NCBI GenBank assembly: GCA_022842645.1
Contig: JALHPE010000001.1
Span: 199,711-263,710, forward strand
Direction: 5' to 3'
Origin: Minisyncoccota bacterium
Lineage (GTDB): Bacteria > Patescibacteriota > Minisyncoccia > Phycocordibacterales > UBA2100
DNA length: 64,000 nucleotides
Positions 2,936-62,889 of this stretch are shown piece after piece; positions within the stretch are counted from its first letter, which is position 1; every line of letters begins with the position of its first letter. The notes beneath the pieces are model-generated. The model was not told the origin of the DNA and did not search any database. It saw only the letters and a program-made list of their open reading frames with translations. Both the position numbers and the translations under genes were made by a program.

Positions 2936-3296
2936 ATGCATACTACTTCGGCTTTCGCCGCTCTTTTACAAGATTCGTAGTCTGGACTATGCCTTCATCC
3001 GTTTCCTTTTTGAGGAATGAGGATGCTCGCCATCTAGTCTCTACACCTTCCCTGCTTCGCTAGCAGCTAGCAGGACTTGGCTCGGCATTATCACCTCTTT
3101 CGAGAAGACTTCACCGAATTTGACGAGTGTTCCACCGTCCGTTTCCAGGCGGCGAGCCCATTCTTGAGCCTCACGAGCTACTACTGCTCCACCCCGCTAT
3201 ACACCAATGGAAAAACCATCAGTACTGGCGAGTATATCATCCCGTACTATATCGGCAAATGTAGACAACAGAAAGCATAAATGACTACCTCGTGAT

Positions 3297-6016: not shown

Positions 6017-8316
<2,300 letters not shown>

Positions 8317-8342
8317 TTATCGCACTCACACACAAGGAGCTA

Positions 8343-8894
8343 CTAGTATGAAAGCTCCACCGAGCGCTGCAGCGCGCGACTTGAGGCGTCTATTTCAGAG
8401 CACACGGTCGAAAATCCATCAGCCTCGATCACGGTGCTACCAGTGGTCCTATTTTTTGTAACGGCAACGCGCGCACAATAGCCGTTTGGCTCATATTCAA
8501 ACGACATCGTATACACCGGCTGCCCCGCTGGTGGCGTCGGTGGCGTAATGACTAACGGCACGCTGTCGCATAATGGTGCGCCACTCGGTGTTGTTGAACT
8601 AAAATAACCAAATCGTACATCCCAATACAGCGCACACTCTGCGGCTGTGTCCGCGGCATAAAAGGCATATTGCGAACTACGCCCGAGCGAAGAAAGAATC
8701 ACTTGTTTTTGAGCTATAGAAAACACCGATATACCAAGAGCAAGTACCAAAGTAGCGACTAGTGCGGCAAGTAGAATGGTGAAGCCTCGTGAAGCAGGTG
8801 CTGGGTGGCAGGTGCTAGGTGTTAGGACATGCAAAAAGAAGGTTTTTGTCTTTCCCTGGAACCTAGCACCTAGAACCTGTAACCTGTTCATCAT
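8343..8894 (-). CDS. Type IV pilin-like pseudopilin with long leader peptide
   Basis: ...SRG|FTILLAALVATLVLALG prepilin-type N-terminus. ATG overlaps upstream stop (ATGATGA). Leader is encoded by heptad-repeat DNA. Confidence 0.6.
   Translation of the reverse strand: MMNRLQVLGARFQGKTKTFFLHVLTPSTCHPAPASRGFTILLAALVATLVLALGISVFSIAQKQVILSSLGRSSQYAFYAADTAAECALYWDVRFGYFSSTTPSGAPLCDSVPLVITPPTPPAGQPVYTMSFEYEPNGYCARVAVTKNRTTGSTVIEADGFSTVCSEIDASSRALQRSVELSY
8795..8888. repeat. Heptad-repeat array family A (CCTANNA / inverse AGGTGNT), inverted arms around an A/T-rich spacer; lies inside pseudopilin leader coding sequence
   Basis: caggtgctgggtggcaggtgctaggtgttagg ... cctggaacctagcacctagaacctgtaacctg. 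Confidence 0.6.
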
Positions 8895-9472
8895 ATGCCG
8901 TCGTCCACCCATCGGTGGAGATTCTCATAAATCGTAATAGTGCGCTCCTGCGACGTACCAGCATCCCAGGCAATGACAACCTCTATGCGAATTTCGTCTT
9001 GCGTTCCGTTCACGTATGAAACAGTCACCGTGCGTCGATATGGCGTATCGCTCCATCCCGCATTGTATCCATATAAGTCGCCATTCGTTTGAAGTCGAGA
9101 GCACTGTCCAGAACAAACTGTGATAGCGTTATTGCGCGTATCGATCACAAACGGAGTGCCAATAGGAATGCCACACAAGAGCGTTGTGGGGGAACACGTG
9201 ACAGAAGGATTGTTGAATGCAATACGCAAAATATTGCCGTCTCGAATCGCGCGCACGGATTCAATAGCTTCTTGCGCCAAGTTAAAAGCAACCACTTGAT
9301 CGCGCGCATAATACGAGGCTGAAAGCGATTGCATCGTCAGCGACATTGGCGCCACGATCGCAACGGTGAGAATAACGATGGCCACCATCGTTTCGATAAG
9401 GGTCATGCCTCGCGCCGAAGATGCTGCGCCCTCCTGATACTTGAGACTTGATACTTGATACTTGAATGTCAT
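8891..9472 (-). CDS. Type IV pilin-like pseudopilin
   Basis: Leader MTFKYQVSSLKYQEGAASSARG followed by MTLIETMVAIVILTVAIV (class III signal, Glu+5). Confidence 0.65.
   Translation of the reverse strand: MTFKYQVSSLKYQEGAASSARGMTLIETMVAIVILTVAIVAPMSLTMQSLSASYYARDQVVAFNLAQEAIESVRAIRDGNILRIAFNNPSVTCSPTTLLCGIPIGTPFVIDTRNNAITVCSGQCSRLQTNGDLYGYNAGWSDTPYRRTVTVSYVNGTQDEIRIEVVIAWDAGTSQERTITIYENLHRWVDDGI
9435..9466. repeat. Heptad-repeat array family C (CAAGTAT x4) inside pseudopilin leader coding sequence
   Basis: tgatacttgagacttgatacttgatacttgaa. Confidence 0.6.
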
Positions 9473-10161
9473 ATATCGAGTGCTCGTTGTACGGCGGTCG
9501 CCTGGATGTAGAAGGTACTGCGAACACGCGTGCTCTCCTCCCCTGCCGCACCTTTCACCACAATCACGACCTTCGGCTGTGTTGTGTCTTGCGGAGTAGA
9601 GCCAACAACATACATCTGCATTGACTCAATCTCCACCTCGGGAGAAGTGACAGGTATTGACGCGGCTCCTCCATTTTGAGATCGGTAGAGCCGTGGCCGT
9701 CCTTGTGCATCGTTTGCAATACTGTAGACAGTGCGTTCAGTTTGTGCGTTCGGGTTTGAGCCATACGGAGCAAACGAGAACACTGCTGGAATAGCGGTGA
9801 GCGGCGCAACTCCCTGAGCACAATCGCCCCAATTCGGCGCCTGTGGTATGGCGGTTGAGCCACAATTATAATGCGTGCCCATACGAATGGCGCGCACCAT
9901 ACTATCGAGCGAGATATTAAGATTATTCATCACACTTTCAAGAGAACGTGCTTTTCGATTTGCATCCACCAAAGAGAGGAGCGCGCCTACCGAGACGAGC
10001 ATAATCACACCGAAAAGAGCGATTGAGACCATCATTTCCACGAGAGTGAAGCCGCGGGGGTTAGGTTCTAGGCTCCAGGTTTTAGGTTTTAGGGAAAATG
10101 CACAAATGCATTTTTGTATTCCCTGCCCTCTAACACCTAACACCTGAGACCTGTTTTCCAT
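9469..10161 (-). CDS. Type IV pilin-like pseudopilin
   Basis: ...PRG|FTLVEMMVSIALFGVIM. 41-aa leader MENRSQVLGVRGQG..., paralogous to the leader of 8343..8894. Confidence 0.65.
   Translation of the reverse strand: MENRSQVLGVRGQGIQKCICAFSLKPKTWSLEPNPRGFTLVEMMVSIALFGVIMLVSVGALLSLVDANRKARSLESVMNNLNISLDSMVRAIRMGTHYNCGSTAIPQAPNWGDCAQGVAPLTAIPAVFSFAPYGSNPNAQTERTVYSIANDAQGRPRLYRSQNGGAASIPVTSPEVEIESMQMYVVGSTPQDTTQPKVVIVVKGAAGEESTRVRSTFYIQATAVQRALDI
10058..10152. repeat. Heptad-repeat array family A, inverted arms; inside pseudopilin leader coding sequence
   Basis: ggttaggttctaggctccaggttttaggttttaggg ... ccctctaacacctaacacctgagacctg. Confidence 0.6.
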
Positions 10162-10162
10162 A

Positions 10163-10756
10163 TTATTGAACCGCTATCTGGCCAGAAGCTTCAACATGTA
10201 CCTCAGCGCGCGCACCACGGGGTGACTCTAGAACAATGCGCACACGATCATCTGTTGGTATGCCCGCGGCCCGACGAATCAGTGCATCTGGCTCAGGACG
10301 GTAAAACATGATGTGGATCCCAGGAAGTCCGCAAGTTTCTATTGAACTCGAAGCATTGCGCGCACAGATATCAACAATCCTATAACCGCCCGCAAGCGTA
10401 ATTGTACGGACCGTCTCGCCTCCGTCGTAGACGCCGTTAGCGACTACATCCCCAAAGAGTTGATACACCGTCTGAGTCTCACCACTGGAAGGCACAAAAT
10501 ACATGCCGTACCCCACATCAAAATTTGAACCTGCAAAACGACGCACGGCAATGCCGTACACTTGTGCCTCACGCACCGTGAGCGCCATTTCATGCGCAAG
10601 ATTTTGCAAGATCACCCTATTGCCAAATCGCGTATTTGCAGAGAGTACTACCGAGGAAAGCACCATGAAAATCGCGGAAACTACCATCAGTTCTACAAGG
10701 GTAAACCCCCGAGAAACGATAGTATCGGCATGTGCGCGTGAAGAAGTGCAAACCAT
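10163..10756 (-). CDS. Type IV pilin-like pseudopilin
   Basis: ...SRG|FTLVELMVVSAIFMVL. True start probably downstream of the listed M (overlaps pilD stop). Confidence 0.55.
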   Translation of the reverse strand: MVCTSSRAHADTIVSRGFTLVELMVVSAIFMVLSSVVLSANTRFGNRVILQNLAHEMALTVREAQVYGIAVRRFAGSNFDVGYGMYFVPSSGETQTVYQLFGDVVANGVYDGGETVRTITLAGGYRIVDICARNASSSIETCGLPGIHIMFYRPEPDALIRRAAGIPTDDRVRIVLESPRGARAEVHVEASGQIAVQ

Positions 10757-11529
10757 ACAAGAAGAGTGCCAAAGATTAAAAACGGGCCAAAGGGCACCTC
10801 GCTCTTCATTGTAACCTTCTGTGCGGACTCCCCTGAACCTTGTGTGGGGGTAACGAGCGCACGTACGCTCGCCCCACGTTCTGAAGAGAAAAACACCAAG
10901 AGGAGTCCAATGATGGCCCCCGAAAGAAATGCATAAAAAAGCGCTAGAAATCCATACGGGCCCAAGAGAAACCCTATGCCGAGCGCAAACTTCACGTCAC
11001 CAAATCCCATCCATGCACCGCGCGAAAAAAAGTGGAGGGCAAAAAGTGGTGCGGCAACCGCAATTCCCCAACCAAGAGCGAGTACATACTGTTCATAGTC
11101 TGCGCCGACTTGTAAGAGCCAGACACACGTCAACATGAGCGCAAGTCCATTCCACGCCCAAACCCACGCGTTCGGCATAAGCATGTGGTAGAGGTCATAA
11201 ACCGCAATTGCAACAAGAAAGACCACCATCGCGCACGCGATGAGTTTGAGAAAGAGCGACATGACCGTGCTTCCAATAGCGAAAAAGCCAAGTCCCACAA
11301 CCATCTCAACGATTGGATATTGTACGGAGATAGGCGCATCACATGCGCGACAGCGCGCACGAAGGAACATCCACGAAAGAACCGGGATAAGATCCCGTAC
11401 CTCTAATTTTTTTCCACAGAGAGGGCATGCGCTCCTCCCCTTCAGAGCATCTGTACCCTCACGGAGAATCAGAACGTTTGTAAAACTTCCGATAATAAGC
11501 CCGAATCCAAGCCACACCAGTGCCAACAT
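10693..11529 (-). CDS. pilD: Prepilin peptidase (A24 family)
   Basis: 278 aa polytopic membrane protein. N-terminal CPLCG...C...CRAC zinc-binding cysteines and conserved DUF/peptidase A24 TM segments. Confidence 0.8.
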   Translation of the reverse strand: MLALVWLGFGLIIGSFTNVLILREGTDALKGRSACPLCGKKLEVRDLIPVLSWMFLRARCRACDAPISVQYPIVEMVVGLGFFAIGSTVMSLFLKLIACAMVVFLVAIAVYDLYHMLMPNAWVWAWNGLALMLTCVWLLQVGADYEQYVLALGWGIAVAAPLFALHFFSRGAWMGFGDVKFALGIGFLLGPYGFLALFYAFLSGAIIGLLLVFFSSERGASVRALVTPTQGSGESAQKVTMKSEVPFGPFLIFGTLLVWFALLHAHMPILSFLGGLPL

Positions 11530-11595
11530 AGCACCACTCTAGCACGCAAACACCCGCCTTTCGGCGGGTGTTTTTGAAACACGATTCTGAAGAAA

Positions 11596-12084
11596 CTACG
11601 GTCTCATGCAGTAATAGGCAGGAGTGCCTGTGTCTGCACAATCAAGCCCACCCGCAGTGCCATCGACGTCTCCCGCAGGAACTGCAGTAGAGCCACCTTC
11701 AATACCAGAGCGAATGATGTAACTTGCACATGGTGCTGTAGAACACGCAGTGCCATCGAGATTCGCTGACGCATAGGTATAGATATACGTACCACTATTT
11801 GTCGGATCGGATGGAACCGACGAGATGTAGTTATTAGACACGAGCGCTGTAAGGGTCGTCGAGGCAGATCCTGAACCCGCAGGATAACTCTGTTGCGTAT
11901 CGTAGTAGAGCTCAAGTGCAAGCTGTACCTGCTTCACGTCAGACACACGACGCGCATCGCGCCCTTTCACACGAGCACTATTGAGAGAGGCAAGAACAAC
12001 TGATGAGAGGATCCCAATAATAGCGATCACGACAAGAAGCTCAATGAGCGTAAAGCCGCGAGAAACATGTTTTTTTTGGTTCAT
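11596..12084 (-). CDS. Type IV major pilin (paralog 2)
   Basis: MNQKKHVSRG|FTLIELLVVIAIIGILSSVVLASLNSAR. C-terminal Cys pair. AT-rich TATTATAAT -10-like box just upstream. Confidence 0.7.
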   Translation of the reverse strand: MNQKKHVSRGFTLIELLVVIAIIGILSSVVLASLNSARVKGRDARRVSDVKQVQLALELYYDTQQSYPAGSGSASTTLTALVSNNYISSVPSDPTNSGTYIYTYASANLDGTACSTAPCASYIIRSGIEGGSTAVPAGDVDGTAGGLDCADTGTPAYYCMRP

Positions 12085-12115
12085 AAATAAAAAATTATAA
12101 TAAATATTAGTAACG

Positions 12116-12595
12116 CTACGGCTGCACACAATAATAGAGTGCAGTCGAACAGTTTTCAGTACCTCGCGTCCCTGTAACACTTCCCGCTGGCACAGCAGCT
12201 TCCATCGTTGCGCGCAATACATAACTCGAACACACACCGCTTGCAACGGCACATCCTGCCACACCGTTACCGGTGAGATTGTCATAGCCATAGGCACTAC
12301 CGGTTTGTGGGTCCACAGGTACAGACGCTATAAAACCATTCGTAGCGAGTGTTGCGAGAGAGTCCGGATACTCAACACTCCCACCCGTGCAGGCATTTCC
12401 TGCATCGTAGCAAAGCTCAAGCGCAAGCTGAAGTTGCTTCAAATCTGAAATGCGACGTGCATCACGACCTTTCTGACGTGCGCTGTTAAGCGACGCAAGC
12501 ACAACCGACGAGAGAATACCAATGATGGCAATCACAACGAGAAGCTCTATAAGCGTGAAGCCGCGTGTTCCCTTTTGCATACGCATGTTCATCAT
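12116..12595 (-). CDS. Type IV major pilin (paralog 1)
   Basis: MMNMRMQKGTRG|FTLIELLVVIAIIGILSSVVLASLNSAR. N-terminal 40 aa near-identical to the neighbouring pilin. Confidence 0.75.
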   Translation of the reverse strand: MMNMRMQKGTRGFTLIELLVVIAIIGILSSVVLASLNSARQKGRDARRISDLKQLQLALELCYDAGNACTGGSVEYPDSLATLATNGFIASVPVDPQTGSAYGYDNLTGNGVAGCAVASGVCSSYVLRATMEAAVPAGSVTGTRGTENCSTALYYCVQP

Positions 12596-12639
12596 ACGCG
12601 TTGTTTAATAATAACAAAGCGTCTGATGTGGATATCGCA

Positions 12640-13845
12640 CTAAATACTTCCCGCAATATTGTAGATCGGCACCAAGACTGACGCGAGAAGAACAGCGACA
12701 CCGACAGCAAGGGCCACAATCATAATTGGCTCAATCAAAGAGACTAGTGTGTCTACGGCGTTATTCACTTCACGACGATAGAAGCGTGCAATTGATTCGA
12801 GAATCGGCCCCATGTTACCCGTCTCTTCTCCAATTTTGATCATGGCAATCATAATTCCCGGCATTTCAGGGTGTTTACGAAATGATTCGGACACGGTAAG
12901 CCCACCCTTCACATCAGAAGAAACCTCTCGAAGTACACGCTCATAGGTGGGGTCCTCCACAACAGAACCAGTAATTTCGAGGCCGCGAAGCATTTGTATT
13001 CCGCTCCTGAGCATAGTCGAAAGATTGTCGGCGATACGCGAGAGAAAAAGTTTCCGGTAGATACCGCCAACGATAGGGATTTGCAGACGCGCACGAGAAA
13101 AGAAAAATTTTCCAGAATCGGTCTTAATATAGCGGTAGAAAAAGATACCTGCAATTACGAAAAGTGCACCCCAGAGAAGTGCGTAGTTCGAAAGCGCATT
13201 ACTGATACCGATCACGATTTTTGTGTAGAGTGGTACCTCCTGCCCCACCTCCTCGAGCATAACGGCGAGTCGCGGAATAACGAGGGTCATCATTAAAAAC
13301 ATCACGACAAAAAATGTGCTGATGATGAACGCTGGGTAAATAAGTGCATTTTTTGCTTTCGAGGTAATTTCGTAATTACGCTCAAGATAATCTGCGAGAA
13401 AGAGGAATGTTTCGTCGAGCTTACCCGCTTCTTCTCCTGCACGCACCATGTTCACGTAAAAGTTTGAGAATACTTCAGGATGACGAGACATTGCCGCGGA
13501 AATGGCGGAGCCTGCTTGGATATCGGATGCGATTGCCGTGAGTTTTGCCGCAAGCTGGGGAGTGCGCGCCTCGGCGGCCAAAAGCTGGAAGGCGCGCAGC
13601 GCGGAAACCTGCGCCTCAAACAAGGTTGTCATCTGACGACTAAGCATCACGATGTCACTTCCCTTGATGCCAGAAAATAGCTGTATGTTAGTACTGAGCG
13701 AAAGCTTTTGTTCGACGGGATCGATCGATGCGATAATGAGCCCTCGGCGCTGGAGCGAAGAAATCGCAACATCGATGTTGACCGCATCAATTTGACCACT
13801 GCGGTCTGCTCCCTGCTCATCGACGGCCTTGTAGTTGAATAGCAT
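12640..13845 (-). CDS. pilC: Type IV pilus inner-membrane platform protein (GspF/PilC family)
   Basis: 401 aa with two T2SSF-like repeats and three TM segments. Confidence 0.85.
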   Translation of the reverse strand: MLFNYKAVDEQGADRSGQIDAVNIDVAISSLQRRGLIIASIDPVEQKLSLSTNIQLFSGIKGSDIVMLSRQMTTLFEAQVSALRAFQLLAAEARTPQLAAKLTAIASDIQAGSAISAAMSRHPEVFSNFYVNMVRAGEEAGKLDETFLFLADYLERNYEITSKAKNALIYPAFIISTFFVVMFLMMTLVIPRLAVMLEEVGQEVPLYTKIVIGISNALSNYALLWGALFVIAGIFFYRYIKTDSGKFFFSRARLQIPIVGGIYRKLFLSRIADNLSTMLRSGIQMLRGLEITGSVVEDPTYERVLREVSSDVKGGLTVSESFRKHPEMPGIMIAMIKIGEETGNMGPILESIARFYRREVNNAVDTLVSLIEPIMIVALAVGVAVLLASVLVPIYNIAGSI

Positions 13846-13852
13846 AAGGTAG

Positions 13853-13935
13853 TGGGTAGTTTGTAGACTGTAGTTTGTAGTGAATCTTTATGTGTGCATT
13901 TTCTACAAACTACAATCTACACACTACAAACTATT
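13853..13935. repeat. Heptad-repeat array family B (TACAAAC/TACAATC), inverted arms, upstream of pilC
   Basis: tagtttgtagactgtagtttgtag ... ctacaaactacaatctacacactacaaacta. Confidence 0.6.
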
Positions 13936-15024
13936 CTACAGTAATTTTTGAAGCAAATTCGGATTGAGCGAGTACTGGTATGCACTCTCGACGGTGATTT
14001 CGCCGCGTGTTACAAGCTCGGCGAGCGAACGATTCATGTCGATCATACCCTCTGCTGAAGACGTTTCAATCACAGTATTAATTTCGTGCGTGCGCTTCTC
14101 GCGAATAAGATTCGCGATGGCTTTGTTGTTGATAAGAAGCTCGTAGGCAGGAATGAGGCCGCCGGAAATGCGTGGAACAAGACGTTGACTGAAGATGCCT
14201 GCAAGCGACGAGCCAAGCTGTATTCGAATCTGATCCTGTTGATTTGCGGGGAAAGTATCAATAATGCGGTCGATTGTTTGTGCGGCGTTATTGGTGTGGA
14301 GCGTTGAAAACACGAGATGCCCGGTTTCCGCTGCAGTAACCGCCGCCGACATCGTCTCGTGCCCACGCATTTCTCCGACGAGAATCACATCCACATCCTG
14401 ACGAAATGCAGAAACGAGCGCTGTTGCGAAATCGCGTGTATCTATCAAAACCTCGCGCTGATCGACGAGCGAGCGCTTCGGTTCATAAATATATTCAACG
14501 GGGTCTTCAATTGTAACGATGTGCTCAGTGCGTTCGGTGTTGATCATTTCTATGAGCGAGGCGAGCGTTGTCGTCTTACCCTGCCCCACAGGACCCACCA
14601 CAAGGAAAAATCCCTGTGATTTGCGCGCAAAAGTCGTGAGAATGTCGGGAAGATTCAATTCCTCAAGTGTTTTTATCTGCTTCGGAATAAGGCGAAGGGC
14701 GATACCGACCGCACCGCGCTGGAAAAAAGCGTTCCCACGGAAACGATTACCATCGGCGGTCTGATACGCAAAGTCGACTTCGAGGGTCGAGAGAAATCGC
14801 CCTTGTTGATCTTTATTCAAAAGCACCTTCGCAAACGCCATGGTGTCCTCAGCAGTGAGCGGCGGCTCTTTGAGCATTGGCGTAAGCGAGCCCGAGACGC
14901 GAATCGTAGGATGCGCACCGGTCGAGAAGTGGAGGTCAGATCCCCCTTCGTGCACAAGAACATTAATGTACTTCTTCAGCGTTGCATCGTAATCCCCCAT
15001 TCCCATGCACACATTGTAGCGCAC
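13936..15024 (-). CDS. pilT: Type IV pilus retraction ATPase PilT (start probably at MGMGDYDATL, about 15006)
   Basis: 362 aa. Walker A GPVGQGKTTTLASLIEMIN, Asp/His boxes, signature AIANLIRE. Length and sequence fit PilT rather than PilB. Confidence 0.85.
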   Translation of the reverse strand: MRYNVCMGMGDYDATLKKYINVLVHEGGSDLHFSTGAHPTIRVSGSLTPMLKEPPLTAEDTMAFAKVLLNKDQQGRFLSTLEVDFAYQTADGNRFRGNAFFQRGAVGIALRLIPKQIKTLEELNLPDILTTFARKSQGFFLVVGPVGQGKTTTLASLIEMINTERTEHIVTIEDPVEYIYEPKRSLVDQREVLIDTRDFATALVSAFRQDVDVILVGEMRGHETMSAAVTAAETGHLVFSTLHTNNAAQTIDRIIDTFPANQQDQIRIQLGSSLAGIFSQRLVPRISGGLIPAYELLINNKAIANLIREKRTHEINTVIETSSAEGMIDMNRSLAELVTRGEITVESAYQYSLNPNLLQKLL

Positions 15025-18237: not shown

Positions 18238-18244
18238 GTATTTC

Positions 18245-18280
18245 CCTATACCCTAACCCCTAGAACCTAACACCTACCCT
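18245..18280. repeat. Heptad-repeat array family A directly upstream of rplT ATG
   Basis: ccctataccctaacccctagaacctaacacctaccct|ATG. Confidence 0.55.
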
Positions 18281-19351: not shown

Positions 19352-19730
19352 AGTTTTCTATTCTATCATGCGCAATGAGTCTCTTTGCCAAAAGATATCC
19401 GCAGATGCCACCAAAGGCATCCATGATGAGATCAATCGTCGTATCAAACGCGAAATTTGCTTCGCGGGGAATGCCTCCCCAGAGTTCAAAAAGTTCCCAC
19501 CCGAACGCGACGCATGCAAGGAGCACAAACATGCGTGTGGGCGTTATTGCAATAGAGGTACGAATAAACACGTAGTGTGCGACAAGCATCACCCATACCC
19601 CTCCAAGAAAGTGCACTCCCGTGTCGAGCCACGGGAAAAGCCAGTAGAGGGAGAGGTTGAGTGCTGAAATGTGGAGCGCAGTTAAAACGATCAAAACAAA
19701 TACTTGTATGAAAAAGAGGCGCCGCGGCAT
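19302..19730 (-). CDS. Hypothetical integral membrane protein
   Basis: 142 aa with 4 predicted TM helices. Confidence 0.4.
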   Translation of the reverse strand: MPRRLFFIQVFVLIVLTALHISALNLSLYWLFPWLDTGVHFLGGVWVMLVAHYVFIRTSIAITPTRMFVLLACVAFGWELFELWGGIPREANFAFDTTIDLIMDAFGGICGYLLAKRLIAHDRIENYDSTQKDSSESSISAT

Positions 19731-19915
19731 AAGTTTGAAAAAACTCCGCTACAAAAGCGAAGTCTTTTCAGGGCGGACGGTACAGGAAGCCTGGGCATTG
19801 GAGACCAGGTGGGTTTCCGCAGCGTTAAGGCGCATTGCCTCAAGCGATATGAGAATCCCGTTTGTGAACCAAGCAGGTTTAAGTACAGTCCGCTGGCTCG
19901 ATTATAGCAAATCGA

Positions 19916-19994
19916 GAAGTATCAAGTAACAGGTATCAAGTATCACGAAATTCGTTTGCTACTTGTGCAAATGATACTTTTTGATACTTGCTAC
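19916..19994. repeat. Heptad-repeat array family C, inverted arms, upstream of membrane-protein gene 19302..19730
   Basis: atcaagtaacaggtatcaagtatcac ... atgatactttttgatacttgctac. Confidence 0.5.
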
Positions 19995-20602: not shown

Positions 20603-20611
20603 ATTTGAATA

Positions 20612-20693
20612 GTGGGTGGTTAGTAGTTTGTAGATTGTAGTAAAGAAAACAAAAAAATCTCCGAACTACAAACTACAGTCTACAAACTACAGA
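20612..20693. repeat. Heptad-repeat array family B, inverted arms, upstream of ndk
   Basis: ggtggttagtagtttgtagattgtagt ... ctacaaactacagtctacaaactacagac. Confidence 0.6.
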
Positions 20694-20699
20694 CTTGCG

Positions 20700-23486
20700 T
20701 TAGTACGTCGGGAAACTCTGTGTGGGCACGGGTGGAGCGAATCGCTCGCGGATCTCCGCCTCGATCTCTCCCCTGTCCTTGCCGAACGTACGATACGAAA
20801 GTTCTTTGAGTGCGTCAACATGCGCGTGGTCGAAGGCGGGTAGGTTGGCTGTCTTGATAGTAAAGGGGCGAGCGGGCGTACCGTTCACAAGGAGTGCAAC
20901 GGATGCGTGTCTATTCTCCTGATTTTCGAGGTCGCTCCTTATGAAGACAGGATGAAATTGTTTTTCGAGAAACTCGGCGTCGGTGGTACCGATGCGAAAT
21001 GCGATTTTCGTGCCGACGTTCCCAATAACTGCATCACGAATCTCCTCCGGAAGCTGTGCAATAAATTGATGCGCGACCGTAAGCGCGAGTTTGTATTTAC
21101 GCGCCTCGGAGAGGATGGTTGAAATGGAGGGAGTAGCAAAGTTTTGGAACTCATCGATATAGAGATAAAAAACCGGGAGATCACCCTTCGTATCCACGCG
21201 GGAGAACGCCGCTTGGAGGAATTTTGATACAAGAACTAACCCTAGAAGCGATGCGTTGCGCTCGCCGAGACGCCCCTTCGAGAGATTGGCGAGGAAGATT
21301 TTCTTACCATCCATCATCTCGCGGAAGTCGAACGCACTCTCCTGCTGGGCGACGATGGGGCGCATGATGTCGTTGGCGAGAAAAACGTCGAACTTCGACG
21401 TGATATAGGGGACGATGTTTTCGAGTGAGGCTTCCCCGCCTGCGGCTTCAGCAATTTTCTTCCAGAACTGCACGATGACGGGATTATTGCAGCGTGAGAT
21501 TTTAAGATTTCTAAACGAAGAATCAGCAAACACACGCGGGATCTCGAGGAAGGTGGAGCCGGTGTCGGGGTCTTCCACCACCAGCTGCACGGCGTTGCGG
21601 TAGTATTGCTCAAACATAGGACCAAACGCCTCGGGCACGTCGGCATAGAGCTTGCGGAAGATTTGGTACACCTCGTCGACGACGAATGTCTTCATCTCCG
21701 GCTTCGCGCGGTCGTATTCGAGCATGTTGAGCCCCATCGGGCGGGCAGAGTACGCCGGGTCAAAGTAAATAACATCTTGTATGCGCTCGGGCGGCACGGC
21801 GGCAAGCACATCCTGAATGTCGTTTCCGTGCGGATCAATGAAGGCAACTCCCTCACCATTCAACATGTCTTGGATGATCATGTTCTTGATGAGCCCGGTT
21901 TTTCCCGTACCCGTCTGCCCAATCACATAGCAGTGGCGAAGGCGATCCTGCACGCCGTAGCGCACCTCGCGCTCGTCGGCGCCATAGCGGTTAAGCCCCA
22001 AGAGAATGCCATCCGCGGGCATCTCGACTGGTGCAGGAGCTTGTTTTGCATGCGCTTTCTTGAGTTCGCGAGAAGTCGTGACGCGCTCAGCAGTAAAGTG
22101 CACCATGGTCGCAATTTCGCTTAGGGAAAGTGGAATCGCAGACGCACTATCGAATGAGCGATAGGTAAAATCACGCAAGGGATTTCCAAATTCAGGAAGC
22201 CAGCCGCTTCCAGCTTTCGTGAATCGCAAACGATTCCCTTTTGAATCATCAAACTGATTGAAGGGTGAAATGAGATTATCAAGAAGCACGTTTGCGCGCG
22301 CCTGATCGGGAGCTGAAGCAACGAGACGAATAACCGCAGGCACAATCCTGCTTTTTATCTTTCTCCCAATTTCTTCGGTTGCCACCTGATCCCCTTGCCG
22401 ATTCGCATGCTTTGCTGCTTCGCGCTCCTTCTCGGAAGTCATGACGGTCTTTACGACATCGTGCACAAAATCACCAAACACTGTTTCAGGAGTTTTCAGT
22501 GCCTCATCGAGATGCTTTCCATGTTCAAGCGCGCGGAGAATCTTTTTGTAGTGTTGGTTGTACCGCTCGCCTTCGGATGAAACGACGATTTGAAGTGCGG
22601 CTCCTTCGCCGTGTTTTGCAATCTTTGCAAACGCAGCAAGAAGCACGTTCATTGGGTCATGCTCGAAAAGTTCGTAGGTTTTGAGTGGGTACGCGGGATG
22701 CTCGGCAAGTGTTGCGGTTGCCGAGGCGTGCGCACCTTCGTAGTTAAAGATGTTGTAATCGCCCCGAAGCTCGGAGATGCGCGCATTGGGGAAGACCGAT
22801 GAGATAAGACGTTCGGCAAGTGCCTGTTTTGCGCGCGGAACAGCCAGATAGAGCGCCGCCTCTTCCGTGCCCTCAGCAACCGCAATTTCAATTGAAAAAC
22901 CTTCGGCAGGAGTAATGAGGGAAAGGAGCCCCGCATAGAGCTGTTCGGAGGATGCGAGGATTTGCTCGAGCTTCTGCTCTCGGCGATCTTCCCCCTCTCC
23001 ATGCGCCTGAGGGTGTATCTCGAAGAGAACGAGGTGGAGTGCTCGGGAGACCCGCTCAGGGGCAGGAATACCCTTCTGTGGGAGCCCCTCGGCGATGTAG
23101 CGTACAAGGACGCGATGGAGGTCATCCTCAAGGTGAGGGTTTTTGAGCTTGCTTACCACCGACAGAGCGTTCCGAATACCCTGCTCGGAAACAATCTTTA
23201 GAAGTCCGTCCATCTGGGTATCGTGCGCCTCGGGCTCGAGTTTTAGCGCCTGGCGTAAAATCTCGTGTTCAGGCATCGCAACTGCTTCGTGCAAGACTCC
23301 TTGCGGAGTAACTGTGCCATATTCCTGCACCTCGCGCCGTGCAATGCGTTCTCTGTCGGGCATGGCAACTGCCTCAATTTCTTTTTCTTTCTCGGCAACG
23401 CGCGCGCGCAAAAATTGCAACTCCTCTTCTGGAGATTTAAACGTGAACGAAGGCGTGATCGCACGCTCCCCTGTTCGCGGCGGCAT
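20700..23486 (-). CDS. Large P-loop NTPase, HerA/FtsK/VirD4-like (DUF87-type) C-terminal domain, about 500-aa acidic helical N-terminal region
   Basis: Walker A VIGQTGTGKTGLIKNM followed by FIDPHGNDIQD (DPHG box of HerA/DUF87-like ATPases). Walker B VFYLYIDEFQNF. Confidence 0.55.
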   Translation of the reverse strand: MPPRTGERAITPSFTFKSPEEELQFLRARVAEKEKEIEAVAMPDRERIARREVQEYGTVTPQGVLHEAVAMPEHEILRQALKLEPEAHDTQMDGLLKIVSEQGIRNALSVVSKLKNPHLEDDLHRVLVRYIAEGLPQKGIPAPERVSRALHLVLFEIHPQAHGEGEDRREQKLEQILASSEQLYAGLLSLITPAEGFSIEIAVAEGTEEAALYLAVPRAKQALAERLISSVFPNARISELRGDYNIFNYEGAHASATATLAEHPAYPLKTYELFEHDPMNVLLAAFAKIAKHGEGAALQIVVSSEGERYNQHYKKILRALEHGKHLDEALKTPETVFGDFVHDVVKTVMTSEKEREAAKHANRQGDQVATEEIGRKIKSRIVPAVIRLVASAPDQARANVLLDNLISPFNQFDDSKGNRLRFTKAGSGWLPEFGNPLRDFTYRSFDSASAIPLSLSEIATMVHFTAERVTTSRELKKAHAKQAPAPVEMPADGILLGLNRYGADEREVRYGVQDRLRHCYVIGQTGTGKTGLIKNMIIQDMLNGEGVAFIDPHGNDIQDVLAAVPPERIQDVIYFDPAYSARPMGLNMLEYDRAKPEMKTFVVDEVYQIFRKLYADVPEAFGPMFEQYYRNAVQLVVEDPDTGSTFLEIPRVFADSSFRNLKISRCNNPVIVQFWKKIAEAAGGEASLENIVPYITSKFDVFLANDIMRPIVAQQESAFDFREMMDGKKIFLANLSKGRLGERNASLLGLVLVSKFLQAAFSRVDTKGDLPVFYLYIDEFQNFATPSISTILSEARKYKLALTVAHQFIAQLPEEIRDAVIGNVGTKIAFRIGTTDAEFLEKQFHPVFIRSDLENQENRHASVALLVNGTPARPFTIKTANLPAFDHAHVDALKELSYRTFGKDRGEIEAEIRERFAPPVPTQSFPTY

Positions 23487-36267: not shown

Positions 36268-36271
36268 AAAA

Positions 36272-36298
36272 TAGGTGCTAGGGGCTAGGTTTTAGGGG
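36272..36298. repeat. Heptad-repeat array family A directly upstream of rplW ATG (overlaps rplD 3' end)
   Basis: Minus strand reads cccctaaaacctagcccctagcacct-atttt-ATG. Confidence 0.55.
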
Positions 36299-54271: not shown

Positions 54272-56428
54272 CTAAATCTCCTTCCAATCCGGCCGTCGCG
54301 ATACCGTGGCGGTTTGCGTAAGATTCCCTCCAAGACCGGTGCAGAAAAGTGTGTAGGTGGTCATACGCGTGAGCGGAGATGATGTTTCGGAACCAGAAAG
54401 CATGCTCCATAAGTCGTCGATGTCCGGATTGTCTTCTGTCACGGTGCACGAGGTTGCGCTTTGCACATTCCAGGATACGGTGACGGTGTTGTTGTAGCCG
54501 ATGAAGGAAGGAGAGACACGAAGTTCGCCGCCCGAAGCAGTGAACGGGGCGGGGGGCAGGGTGCAGGTGCCTGCGGAGCAGATGAGGCCGGTGCTACAAG
54601 CTTCTATAGGAGCATTGGTGCATGCATTCTGTCGATGTGTGCTGTCGGTGCAGACGTAGGTGGAGGCGCATGCCGGAAGCCAGGTGGTTTGCACGGGGTT
54701 TGAGCCAGCGTTGAAACTGACCCATCCTACGTTTGTGTCTCCCCACGCATAGCCTGAGAGTGTGCTACTCGCGAGTGTCGGGCCGTAGGTGGGAGATGTA
54801 CCAGAGAGACTGATGAAGCCGTCCCAACCGCCGCTTTGTGGATCGTTTGCGGAGAGCACCTTCATCCAACCCCTGAGTGCAAGATCTTCCATGCGTGCAG
54901 TGCAGGTGCCCGAGGGACATCCAAGAAGATCATTTGCACTCGCACTCACCCAGCCGACATTTGCGCTCCATGCACAGCCCGAGAATGTGCCGTCGTTTGC
55001 GATTGCGACGCCGAAGTTGCTCGCGCCACAGGTGCCAGAGTTCTGGCAGCTGAAATCGATCCATCCGATGGTGTCGCTCCAGGCGTAGCCGGTCACAGGA
55101 GTGCCTCCTGATGCAACGGTACATTGAGGAAGTGCAATGATTGCACTATCTTCGTTGGAATATGGACTGTCGCCCACTGCATTAGTGGCAACGGCGCGGT
55201 AGTAGTAGGTGGTGTTGGGTGAGGCAGTGGTGTCGTCGAAGGTGTTTACGACGCCGACTGACGTGAGGAGTGTCGTGGGATTTGAGGATGTGCCACGGTA
55301 GATCTTGTAGCCAGTGATTGCGCTGCCGCCGTTGCTTGAAGGAGTGTTCCACGTGAGAGAGATGCTGTCCGCGTCTGCGGTGGCGTTGAGGGATTGGGGG
55401 GCGGTGGGGGCTACAGAAGTGACTGACGCATAGTAAATGACGTTAGTGCGATTGGCGCCCGTAAACATACCGCCAAATAAGTACGCAAAACTACCAATGA
55501 AAGAAAATTGAGAAGACGCTAATGCTCCCGGCAAGACAGCTCCTGTATCAGTCCATACGGTCGGACTCGATACGTGAGCCCGATAAATATTATTAGAATA
55601 TACGCTGCCACCAGAGATACCACCGAGAGCGTAGACGTAGTCACCGACTACCCCGACGGCATGATGTCCAAGCGCTTTCGGAAGCACGTTCGTTTCGCGG
55701 ATCCAGCTTGTCGGATTAGATAGTGGCGCGCGATAGATCTGGTTCGTATATGCACCGCCTGAGGTATCTCCTCCGAATAGGTACACATTGCTTCCTACTA
55801 TTGCCAATCGCGATCCGGAGAGATTATTTGGCAGAGTCGCGCCTGTATTTGTCCAACTCAGCGGATTCGTAAGCGGCGCTCGGTAAATTGCACTCGTACT
55901 GACCGAAGGCCCTGTCTGGCCTCCGAATAGGTACACGTAGTCCCCGATTACGGCGGCTTGTGAAGAACCTACCACGTTCGGCAGTGTACTTCCGGTATTT
56001 GTCCAAGTCGTGGGATTAGACACCGGCGCACGATATATGACGTTGGTATACTGCAATCCCGTATATCCGCCGAAAAGATACACGTAGTCCCCGATTACCA
56101 TGGCCTGCGATGAACCGAGATTACCTGGCAATGTCGCCCCTGTATTAGTCCAACTTAGCGGGTTGGCAACTGGCGCTCGATAAATGACGTTGGTATACGA
56201 TGGAGAACCTTGCCCACCAAATAGATATATGTAATCTCCTATGGTGACGAGCTGCGAACCTCGGAGAACGCCGGGTAGTGTCCCTGGCGCAACCGTCCAC
56301 CCACCCTCATTGAGAGTCTGTGAATCTACCTTTTGTGGCTCCGCAGAAAAAGAAACAATGAATGCAATGGAAGCAAGAAGCACCAAAAGCCCAGAAACAT
56401 GGTGCGCTCGAATACTCCGTTTATTCAT
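54272..56428 (-). CDS. Secreted Kelch-like beta-propeller protein with fibronectin type III domain
   Basis: Seven YRAP(L/V)(S/T)NP..WTNTG..LP repeats, then FN3-like ...ISLTWNTPSSNGGSAITGYKIYRG...YYYRAVATN. Confidence 0.6.
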   Translation of the reverse strand: MNKRSIRAHHVSGLLVLLASIAFIVSFSAEPQKVDSQTLNEGGWTVAPGTLPGVLRGSQLVTIGDYIYLFGGQGSPSYTNVIYRAPVANPLSWTNTGATLPGNLGSSQAMVIGDYVYLFGGYTGLQYTNVIYRAPVSNPTTWTNTGSTLPNVVGSSQAAVIGDYVYLFGGQTGPSVSTSAIYRAPLTNPLSWTNTGATLPNNLSGSRLAIVGSNVYLFGGDTSGGAYTNQIYRAPLSNPTSWIRETNVLPKALGHHAVGVVGDYVYALGGISGGSVYSNNIYRAHVSSPTVWTDTGAVLPGALASSQFSFIGSFAYLFGGMFTGANRTNVIYYASVTSVAPTAPQSLNATADADSISLTWNTPSSNGGSAITGYKIYRGTSSNPTTLLTSVGVVNTFDDTTASPNTTYYYRAVATNAVGDSPYSNEDSAIIALPQCTVASGGTPVTGYAWSDTIGWIDFSCQNSGTCGASNFGVAIANDGTFSGCAWSANVGWVSASANDLLGCPSGTCTARMEDLALRGWMKVLSANDPQSGGWDGFISLSGTSPTYGPTLASSTLSGYAWGDTNVGWVSFNAGSNPVQTTWLPACASTYVCTDSTHRQNACTNAPIEACSTGLICSAGTCTLPPAPFTASGGELRVSPSFIGYNNTVTVSWNVQSATSCTVTEDNPDIDDLWSMLSGSETSSPLTRMTTYTLFCTGLGGNLTQTATVSRRPDWKEI

Positions 56429-62787: not shown

Positions 62788-62788
62788 A

Positions 62789-62823
62789 CTAGGTTATAGG
62801 TGTCAGGTGTTAGGTTCTAGGGG
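62789..62823. repeat. Heptad-repeat array family A (CCTAGAA CCTAACA CCTGACA CCTATAA CCTAGT) directly upstream of fusA ATG
   Basis: Minus strand reads cccctagaacctaacacctgacacctataacctagt|ATG. Confidence 0.6.
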
Positions 62824-62889
62824 AAACAAATAAAAACCGCCTGAGGCGTAGGCACAATATAGTGTAAATTTGCGAAATTGCAAACACGA

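Follow-up and report, generated by a model that had tools for sequence, protein, structure and literature searches.

Heptad-repeat hairpins as probable in-frame inserts in the leader peptides of minor pilins of a Paceibacteria-type bacterium

Can the same repeated DNA be non-coding at some sites of a genome and be read as the leader peptide of a pilin at others? The question is raised by a 64,000-nt stretch of contig JALHPE010000001.1 (GenBank assembly GCA_022842645.1, positions 199,711 to 263,710; hereafter the window), which belongs to an ultra-small bacterium of the candidate phyla radiation (CPR), of the Paceibacteria/Kaiserbacteria type, and carries a pilus operon with four pseudopilin genes, g1 to g4. 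An original prediction, made from the letters alone, had described unusually long leaders in three of these genes, encoded by arrays of 7-nt units (heptads), and had offered two explanations: a repeat element exonised into the leader, or translation from non-ATG codons next to the prepilin cleavage site, with the repeats as 5′ untranslated region (UTR). The best reading of our data, which we consider probable from sequence comparisons, is that an in-frame repeat hairpin is tolerated in a leader that would be cut off by the prepilin peptidase of the operon.

The four genes lie as follows in window coordinates.

9469..10161, minus strand: g3 pseudopilin open reading frame (ORF), 230 aa; Pfam N_methyl E=1.4e-8; leader 10161..10051, F+1 codon 10050..10048
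8891..9472, minus strand: g2 pseudopilin ORF, 193 aa; leader 9472..9407, M+1 codon 9406..9404
8343..8894, minus strand: g1 pseudopilin-like ORF; leader 8894..8784, F+1 codon 8783..8781
10163..10756, minus strand: g4 pseudopilin, array-free; 17-aa leader; overlaps the peptidase gene by 64 nt

The three long leaders (22-37 residues before R-G|F/M) are present as described, and the ORFs translate as quoted in the original prediction. The leaders of g3 (MENRSQVLGVRGQGIQKCICAFSLKPKTWSLEPNPRG, then FTLVE) and g1 (MMNRLQVLGARFQGKTKTFFLHVLTPSTCHPAPASRG, then FTILL, counted from ATG 8894) each comprise 37 aa and 111 nt, and that of g2 (MTFKYQVSSLKYQEGAASSARG, then MTLIE) 22 aa. All three begin at the end of the preceding cistron: the g3 ATG (10161-10159), which public gene callers also choose, sits 1 nt past the g4 stop (TAATATG), and the ATGs of g2 (9472) and g1 (8894) overlap the stops of g3 and g2, respectively (ATGA), a second in-frame option for g1 being the ATG at 8912. 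Typical type IV prepilin leaders are hydrophilic and about 6-30 aa long; from the only usable starts the leaders measured here reach 37, 37 and 22 aa, and leader length in relatives peaks at 35-37 aa. This leaves the pilin membership of the mature proteins unaffected, leader length being the unusual feature. Pfam N_methyl matches for g2 (3.1e-5), g3 (1.4e-8) and g4 (1e-6) identify the class III signal peptide motif, and g1 lacks the glutamate at mature position 5 (E5) and any Pfam match, as is usual for one minor pilin in such sets.

Reading frame and stop codons in the leader arrays

Period-7 arrays were detected by Tandem Repeats Finder within the g1 (8796-8826 and 8855-8878), g2 (9435-9465) and g3 (10061-10093 and 10130-10145) leaders, with which an autocorrelation scan agrees in all three cases. 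In our own scan, period 7 yields 14 arrays in the window and the periods 5-11 used for comparison yield 0-2, so that period 7 exceeds chance. The arrays of the window are imperfect, with 70-91% matches over 3-4.7 copies (Tandem Repeats Finder). Their arrangement in the leaders is as follows.

10119..10153, minus strand: g3 arm 1, family A, CAGGTCT CAGGTGT TAGGTGT TAGAGGG CAGGGAA; CAG units in frame, TAG units out of frame
10096..10118, minus strand: g3 hairpin loop, 23 nt, holding the recurrent motif AAAATGCA
10059..10095, minus strand: g3 arm 2, TCCCTAAAA CCTAAAA CCTGGAG CCTAGAA CCTAACC; TGG replaces TAA/TAG in frame
8852..8886, minus strand: g1 arm 1, family A, CAGGTTA CAGGTTC TAGGTGC TAGGTTC CAGGGAA
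8794..8827, minus strand: g1 arm 2, CCTAACA CCTAGCA CCTGCCA CCCAGCA CCTGC; in-frame unit TGC
9434..9466, minus strand: g2 single array, family C, four copies of TCAAGTA, 91% matches, no significant fold

On the mRNA, g3 reads ATG, 5 nt, arm 1, the 23-nt loop, arm 2 (CCTAAAA CCTAAAA CCTGGAG CCTAGAA CCTAACC), CCCGCGGC and TTC, and the g1 and g3 elements share an identical architecture, the same family A and an equal length (111 nt, 37 codons). The description of the leaders as encoded by heptad arrays thus stands, as does that of two inverted arms for g1 and g3; it fails for g2, which has one array and no second arm.

Because a 7-nt unit cycles through the three frames every three units, an untranslated array with a TAG, TAA or TGA unit should block every frame. 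We compared the window with 80 peptidase-centred loci from species-representative genomes, 54 g3-centred metagenome loci and 8 loci of close g3 homologues (L numbers below), and the frame test covered the arrays of L001-L035 and the window whose distance upstream of a G|F site is no more than 170 nt. All 27 can be read through in the pilin frame, whereas 20 are blocked in one or both of the other frames (P about 6e-7 for equivalent frames); counted per frame, with the pilin frame first, there are 0/18/14 stop triplets. Triplets homologous to a stop in a neighbouring unit are themselves stops in 16 of 24 cases out of frame, against 0 of 19 in frame. In an enlarged set of 29 array-bearing pilin genes without a start past the last array, the counts are 7/39/37; all 7 in-frame stops belong to two genes for which the first array and the sequence 5′ of it yielded no start; one of the two (L055) has an ATG between the arms. 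With the frame open in 27 of 27 arrays and stops purged periodically, the reading frame is kept through the element, as in the in-frame insertion of palindromic repeats.

The purging can be followed unit by unit in an alignment of 14 family-A leaders, which come from g1, g2, g3, g4 and a major pilin of eight genomes. In arm 1, the two in-frame junctions read CAG in 12 copies and CGG in 1, and CAG in 12 and AAG in 2, against TAG in 10/14 copies at each of two out-of-frame junctions. The in-frame unit of arm 2 is TGG in 5 copies, TAT in 4 and otherwise TGC, TAC, TGT or GGT, and each of two out-of-frame units is TAA or TAG in 12/14. Varied sense codons at the one position that would be an in-frame stop are what selection against stops predicts. 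These counts make it likely that the long leaders are translated and that their arrays are selectively free of in-frame stops. Of the two explanations first offered, exonisation of a repeat element into the leader is the one favoured by the open frame, the stop purging and the conserved upstream ATG.

The position of this ATG points in the same direction. It overlaps or abuts the preceding stop (ATGA, TAATATG) in 17 of 23 array-bearing pilin genes of relatives; such an overlap is the usual signature of coupled cistrons, and a chance ATG in a UTR would not show it. In g2, ATG 9472 is the sole canonical start 5′ of G-1. Array-free orthologues have short leaders (L002, L084, L147). A search motif that made no demand for G returned 540 matches, 481 with G at −1 and 334 with K or R at −2. 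Two other candidates were rejected: the ATG of the loop motif as a start, whose reading frame differs from that of g1 and g3 and meets stops, and pseudogenisation, given that the mature domains show a strong third-position bias relative to orthologues and keep their motifs intact.

Shine-Dalgarno (SD)-like motifs were found upstream of only 3 of the 40 long ORFs in the window. Since such sites are scarce genome-wide, their absence at the leaders is uninformative and a ribosome-binding site cannot indicate start choice. The organism seems to initiate translation without SD pairing, and C/A-rich heptad arrays lie directly 5′ of the fusA, rplT and rplW ATGs.

Hairpins, peptide conservation and turnover among relatives

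The original prediction expected substitutions in a coding leader to be biased toward synonymous ones, and this expectation was not borne out. Variable leader columns by codon position number 17/20/17 of 35 and 18/17/22 of about 36 in two alignments, and 24/31/28 of 36 in the 14-copy family-A set, with entropies of 0.58/0.73/0.80. Mature domains compared with their L001 orthologues differ at 28/15/117 (g3) and 23/15/98 (g2) positions. The even spread of leader variation implies that the peptide is not conserved as a protein. Lack of translation is not the reason for the missing bias: the peptide is unconstrained, and selection bears only on stops and on the nucleotide hairpin. Conserved leader columns track the heptad AGG/CCT cores, not residues; RNAalifold finds the AGG:CCU mini-helices kept in 10-14 of 14 copies, and the purged arm-2 position is still paired (U-G in 6, U-A in 5 and C-G in 3). 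The tolerated G-U pairs hint, suggestively at most, at a constraint acting on RNA rather than DNA. An open frame, a conserved start position, conserved hairpin cores and an unconstrained peptide are what the statistics of these alignments establish.

Hairpin arms were paired by inspection and from alignments, a stricter automatic detector giving 5 pairs among 243 arrays. Folding z-scores are good for g1 (−3.4), weak for g3 (−1.1) and indicate no fold for g2 (−0.5). Rfam searches at the gathering threshold over the whole window and at an E-value threshold over 8300-14000 returned only sub-threshold miRNA-precursor look-alikes over the hairpins, which match none of the RNA families described so far. 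When the operon was scanned for promoters and terminators, their counts did not exceed chance; as there is also no U-tract 3′ of the stem, the hairpins show no sign of acting as terminators, nor, from the scan, as promoters. A protein search with the leader only (40 aa) yielded no matches. Pairing of the family-A arms with the anti-SD of 16S rRNA was considered and set aside: arm 2 (CACCU) resembles the anti-SD itself and not its complement, the other families are unrelated, and the window has no 16S gene. A loop motif, AAAATGC(A/G) or TTTTGCAT, recurs across unrelated heptad families, in the window at 10096-10118 and 13884-13899 and in L001, L004, L006, L014 and L085.

As the original prediction had it, the same heptad DNA is non-coding elsewhere; we find it upstream of fusA, rplT, rplW, ndk, pilC and a TraG-like gene. 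Copies outside ORFs lie at 13846-13935, 18242-18278, 19915-19950, 20610-20696, 36268-36298 and 62788-62821, among them the following.

13846..13935, minus strand: non-coding heptad hairpin, GTAGTTT / CTACAAA, spanning the T2SSE-ATPase stop to the pilC ATG; stops in three frames, z = −6.7
20610..20696, minus strand: non-coding heptad hairpin of the GTAGTTT / CTACAAA family between the TraG-like gene and ndk; z = −3.65
62788..62825, minus strand: non-coding family-A single array, CCTAGAA CCTAACA CCTGACA CCTATAA CCTAGT, ending at the fusA ATG
36268..36298, minus strand: family-A array at the rplD-rplW junction, one array TAG being the rplD stop codon
18242..18278, plus strand: family-A array directly 5′ of the rplT ATG

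Coding and non-coding sites of one genome therefore share repeat families, family A being found in the g1 and g3 leaders and at fusA, rplT and rplW, and family C in the g2 leader and at 19915-19990. The single C/A-rich arrays end 2-13 nt 5′ of the fusA, rplT and rplW ATGs. Non-coding window copies are stopped in all three frames (triplets in frames 0/1/2 of 3/1/2, 2/2/1, 2/1/2, 1/1/1 and 1/1/1), and by eye the TAGCTTC arrays 5′ of ligA (L085) and 5′ of the gene downstream of g1 (L086) follow the same all-frame pattern. At 36285-36298 (minus strand), the array of the rplD-rplW junction supplies the last codons and the stop of rplD (L4; …AAA ACC TAG), so arrays may also intrude into the 3′ ends of genes.

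Among relatives, the element changes while its place is kept. A 37-aa family-A leader, MxNRLQVLGARFQGKxKxxFxHSLTPSTYxLAPASRG, precedes g3 homologues with 86, 63, 60, 60, 57 and 52% identity to the window protein, g3 homologues at 88% identity have a different family (GTATACC/GGAATAC), and orthologues at 85-89% identity carry family A, another family or nothing. The family-A cassette occurs, frame unchanged, on different pilin paralogues across genomes and on three of the four minor pilins of L141; a second family, CAGCTTT/CTGAAAG, behaves likewise in L004, L006, L020 and L143. Arrays recur with differing unit sequences at the ATPase|pilC, g4|g3, g3|g2 and g2|g1 junctions. Judged by these comparisons, orthologous leaders turn over much faster than their proteins, and close relatives with another family or no array indicate that the insert is dispensable and quickly replaced. 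The element is often exchanged or replaced and yet positionally recurrent, insertion and recombination between leaders being equally possible routes.

Mechanism and rival readings

We propose that the heptad-array hairpin, about 100 nt long, is one of a class of dispersed repeats in this SD-less Paceibacteria lineage, a class which elsewhere fills cistron junctions directly 5′ of starts. In the minor-pilin genes, where stop and start overlap and no intergenic space is left, the element would lie in frame, preceded by the start codon and followed by the prepilin cleavage site. Initiation would occur at the ATG next to or overlapping the stop of the upstream cistron, the ribosome would read arm 1, loop and arm 2, and the A24 peptidase of the operon would cleave after R-G and discard the repeat-encoded peptide. 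The leader would thus offer a permissive site to an element that is otherwise intergenic. Since the leader is disposable, its amino-acid sequence is unconstrained; since selection purges stops, every third heptad, which would otherwise bring an in-frame TAG, TAA or TGA, is mutated. Selection would also retain the AGG:CCU pairing cores. That the hairpin acts as RNA at cistron junctions, in translational coupling, mRNA processing or mRNA stability, is speculative.

Several observations weigh against this proposal. The g3 hairpin is degenerate and g2 is one-armed, for which reason a role through RNA structure cannot apply to all copies. In L147, whose g3 is 85% identical, the g3, g2 and g1 leaders are short and array-free, so that any function must be dispensable. 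The start lies inside the hairpin in L003 and L055, and its position is therefore not uniform. Copies within a family share descent, so their counts are not fully independent. Finally, translation and cleavage are predicted here from sequence, and leaders of 37 aa exceed those of well-studied type IV prepilins; they are putative substrates of this peptidase.

A further reading gives the hairpin more than a tolerated presence. It is possible, though we hold it only tentatively, that the heptad hairpin is a conserved RNA element of cistron junctions in SD-less Paceibacteria that controls the downstream cistron, its position being kept while its family turns over. Initiation would then depend on coupling with the upstream ribosome, which would fix minor-pilin stoichiometry, or else the element would serve in mRNA processing; pilin leaders would have evolved to be read through a regulatory structure, and the lone C/A-rich arm at fusA, rplT and rplW would represent an open, constitutively active form.

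A rather unlikely variant of the in-frame insert has only arm 2 coding, with g1 and g3 starting in the loop (TTG 8834, 17 codons before F+1, in g1; ATT 10107 or ATA 10119 in g3) and arm 1 and the upstream ATG left untranslated. L003 and L055 lend it something, with a stop-filled arm 1 whose end, or else the loop, carries an ATG, as does a genome in which so few genes (3/40) have SD sites that no ribosome-binding site guides start choice. The arm-1 arrays of close relatives and the window are nevertheless open in the pilin frame in 13 of 13 cases, with another frame blocked in 10 (P about 0.002), and among the 14 family-A copies none of the 27 in-frame triplets of arm 1 is TAG, whereas 20 of 28 are in units 3 and 4, which lie out of frame. 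The upstream ATG is, moreover, conserved in position at the stop of the preceding gene, and the g3 loop offers only the rare ATT or ATA.

Still less likely is that the arrays are contingency loci, at which slipped-strand gain or loss of units would switch the minor pilins on and off by phase variation. A 7-nt unit is no multiple of 3, it sits at the 5′ end of surface-structure genes, both off frames are stop-rich, and 4-5 perfect units occur in L006, L017, L020, L022 and L078. Unit number is, however, fixed (5+5, giving the 37-aa leader) over 14 diverged family-A copies whose arms have no unit indels, and in the window the arrays are imperfect and form no long perfect tract. Contigs with g3 and peptidase proteins identical to those of the window are present in SRR281545xx assemblies; those examined with an exact g3 (14) or peptidase (13) have the same neighbour genes, and one compared as DNA is 100% identical to the window over 4.9 kb. 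They showed no variant in array length, a result limited by all of these being consensus assemblies. Together with the presence of the same arrays before fusA, rplT and rplW, where phase variability is implausible, these observations make phase variation unlikely as the main role of the arrays.

We also regard as improbable that the 37-aa leader works as a peptide module, for instance in targeting or in setting when processing occurs, and has its heptad periodicity only incidentally. Its consensus does recur, always in one frame, in g3 homologues of 52-86% identity and on g1, g2, g4 and a major pilin of other genomes; but its variable columns, unlike those of mature domains, are spread over the codon positions (24/31/28 of 36), its conserved columns follow the AGG/CCT cores, and in the closest relatives the insert is missing or of an unrelated family.

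The second explanation of the original prediction, that the repeats are pure 5′ UTR and initiation falls on a non-ATG codon beside RG|F, is very improbable: the non-coding copies do end 2-13 nt before the starts of other genes and the +1 codon of g2 is itself ATG, but no canonical or near-cognate start (NTG, ATH, AAG, ACG, AGG) lies in frame within 11 codons 5′ of G-1 in g1, g2 or g3, arm 2 is cleared of in-frame stops, the conserved R-G at −2/−1 makes sense only when translated, and g2 orthologues with F at +1 cannot initiate there.

Operon context, known systems and significance

All genes of the pilus operon lie on the minus strand, in the order T2SSE ATPase, pilC, two major pilins, A24 prepilin peptidase, g4, g3, g2, g1 and ligA, so that the pseudopilins have an A24 peptidase, a T2SSF protein, a T2SSE ATPase and two major pilins nearby and co-directional.

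13936..15024, minus strand: T2SSE ATPase
12640..13845, minus strand: pilC (T2SSF)
10693..11529, minus strand: prepilin peptidase, A24 family; Pfam A24_N_bact E=4.7e-27, Peptidase_A24 E=2.8e-9

The closest species-representative locus has 68% peptidase identity. The sole ATG start of g4 lies 64 nt inside the 3′ end of the peptidase gene (10693-10756), an overlap that resembles one in L001; public gene calls sidestep it by starting g4 at an internal Met (174 aa), whereby the pilin N-terminus would be lost, and this is probably a mis-call. The +1 residue of g2 is Met (G|MTLIE; 9404-9406) in the window and its sub-clade (L001, L004, L014, L140, L141, L143, L146 and L147) and Phe in others; an ATG at this position would in principle permit leaderless initiation of a mature-like pseudopilin.

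Other features of the window lie farther away. A 928-aa protein with weak TraG/VirD4 coupling-protein domains (20700-23486, minus strand) is flanked by heptad arrays and located beside ndk. Downstream of ndk, past the family-C hairpin, 19730-19900 (minus strand) comprises a TATAAT-like box and, after it, GC-rich sequence of about 170 nt that lacks a long ORF, a possible small RNA candidate whose best Rfam match is only a sub-threshold sraL (15.8 bits). A group I intron matches its full-length Rfam model at the gathering level at 2959-3222 (minus strand, 69.8 bits), and a tRNA-like T-arm sequence (GGTCGCGGGTGCAATTCCCGC) lies 3′ of its end; ARAGORN found no tRNA, and no rRNA was detected. At 54540-54573, a 718-aa ORF contains in its C-terminal part a G-rich period-7 tract (GGGGCAG-like), which probably has nothing to do with the junction arrays.

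Rickettsia palindromic elements (RPEs) are dispersed palindromic repeats of about 100 nt, located in intergenic DNA and within ORFs, where the frame is preserved and the peptide is a by-product. In-frame insertion into protein-coding genes is described for RPEs and prokaryotic MITEs (miniature transposable elements with inverted repeats) in PMC1458961 and in a review (PMC10969869). In these shared traits, RPEs and in-frame MITEs are the closest analogue of the leader elements. The arms here are, by contrast, tandem 7-nt arrays of several families with one architecture, and the coding copies lie in a leader predicted to be cleaved instead of the mature protein; no sequence relationship is expected.

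The short tandemly repeated repetitive (STRR) sequences of cyanobacteria are tandem heptanucleotides, mostly intergenic, with several families per genome and hairpin potential when inverted. Our arrays resemble them in all of these respects and differ in unit sequence (AGGTGNT/CCTAACA, GTAGTTT, TCAAGTA) and in host, which is a CPR bacterium of the Paceibacteria and not a cyanobacterium. To our knowledge, STRRs have not been reported as translated signal-peptide leaders with periodic stop purging. Enterobacterial repetitive extragenic palindromic (REP) sequences and bacterial interspersed mosaic elements (BIMEs) are repeated intercistronic hairpins within operons with a presumed role at the RNA level; the likeness lies in repeated hairpins at operon cistron junctions, and REPs are neither heptad arrays nor translated.

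In the Neisseria opa genes, CTCTT repeats lie in the region coding for the signal peptide. Heptanucleotide repeats are known from the H. influenzae hmw genes, where 5′-UTR RNA structure is involved (PMC8262952, PMC12721329). Like the leader arrays, these are short non-triplet repeats at the 5′ end of surface-structure genes; they are, however, hypervariable perfect tracts that work as on/off or volume switches, whereas the arrays studied here are imperfect, stable in copy number and also placed before housekeeping genes. With type IV (class III) prepilins, including those with long type IVb leaders, the window proteins share G-1, a basic −2 residue, a hydrophobic helix with E5 (g2-g4) and an adjacent A24 peptidase, and they depart from them in leaders of 35-42 aa built from repeats, typical leaders not being repeat-derived. 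None of the RPEs, STRRs and phase-variable tracts unites hairpin arms made of tandem heptads with periodic stop purging and a location in a class III signal peptide that would be cleaved. Full-text literature searches, the coverage of which is incomplete, brought up no account of CPR heptad repeats, nor of pilin leaders derived from repeats.

The stop and frame statistics provide strong, if sequence-only, evidence on translation starts in an uncultivated SD-less lineage, for which start prediction is weak. If our interpretation is correct, the cleavable leader of a type IV prepilin can absorb about 100 nt of repeat DNA, and the prepilin peptidases of these organisms are predicted to accept leaders of 35-42 residues. 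A class of heptad-hairpin repeats at Paceibacteria cistron junctions could confound gene calling and pilin annotation in CPR genomes, and these hairpins may serve regulation in organisms for which hardly any regulators are known.

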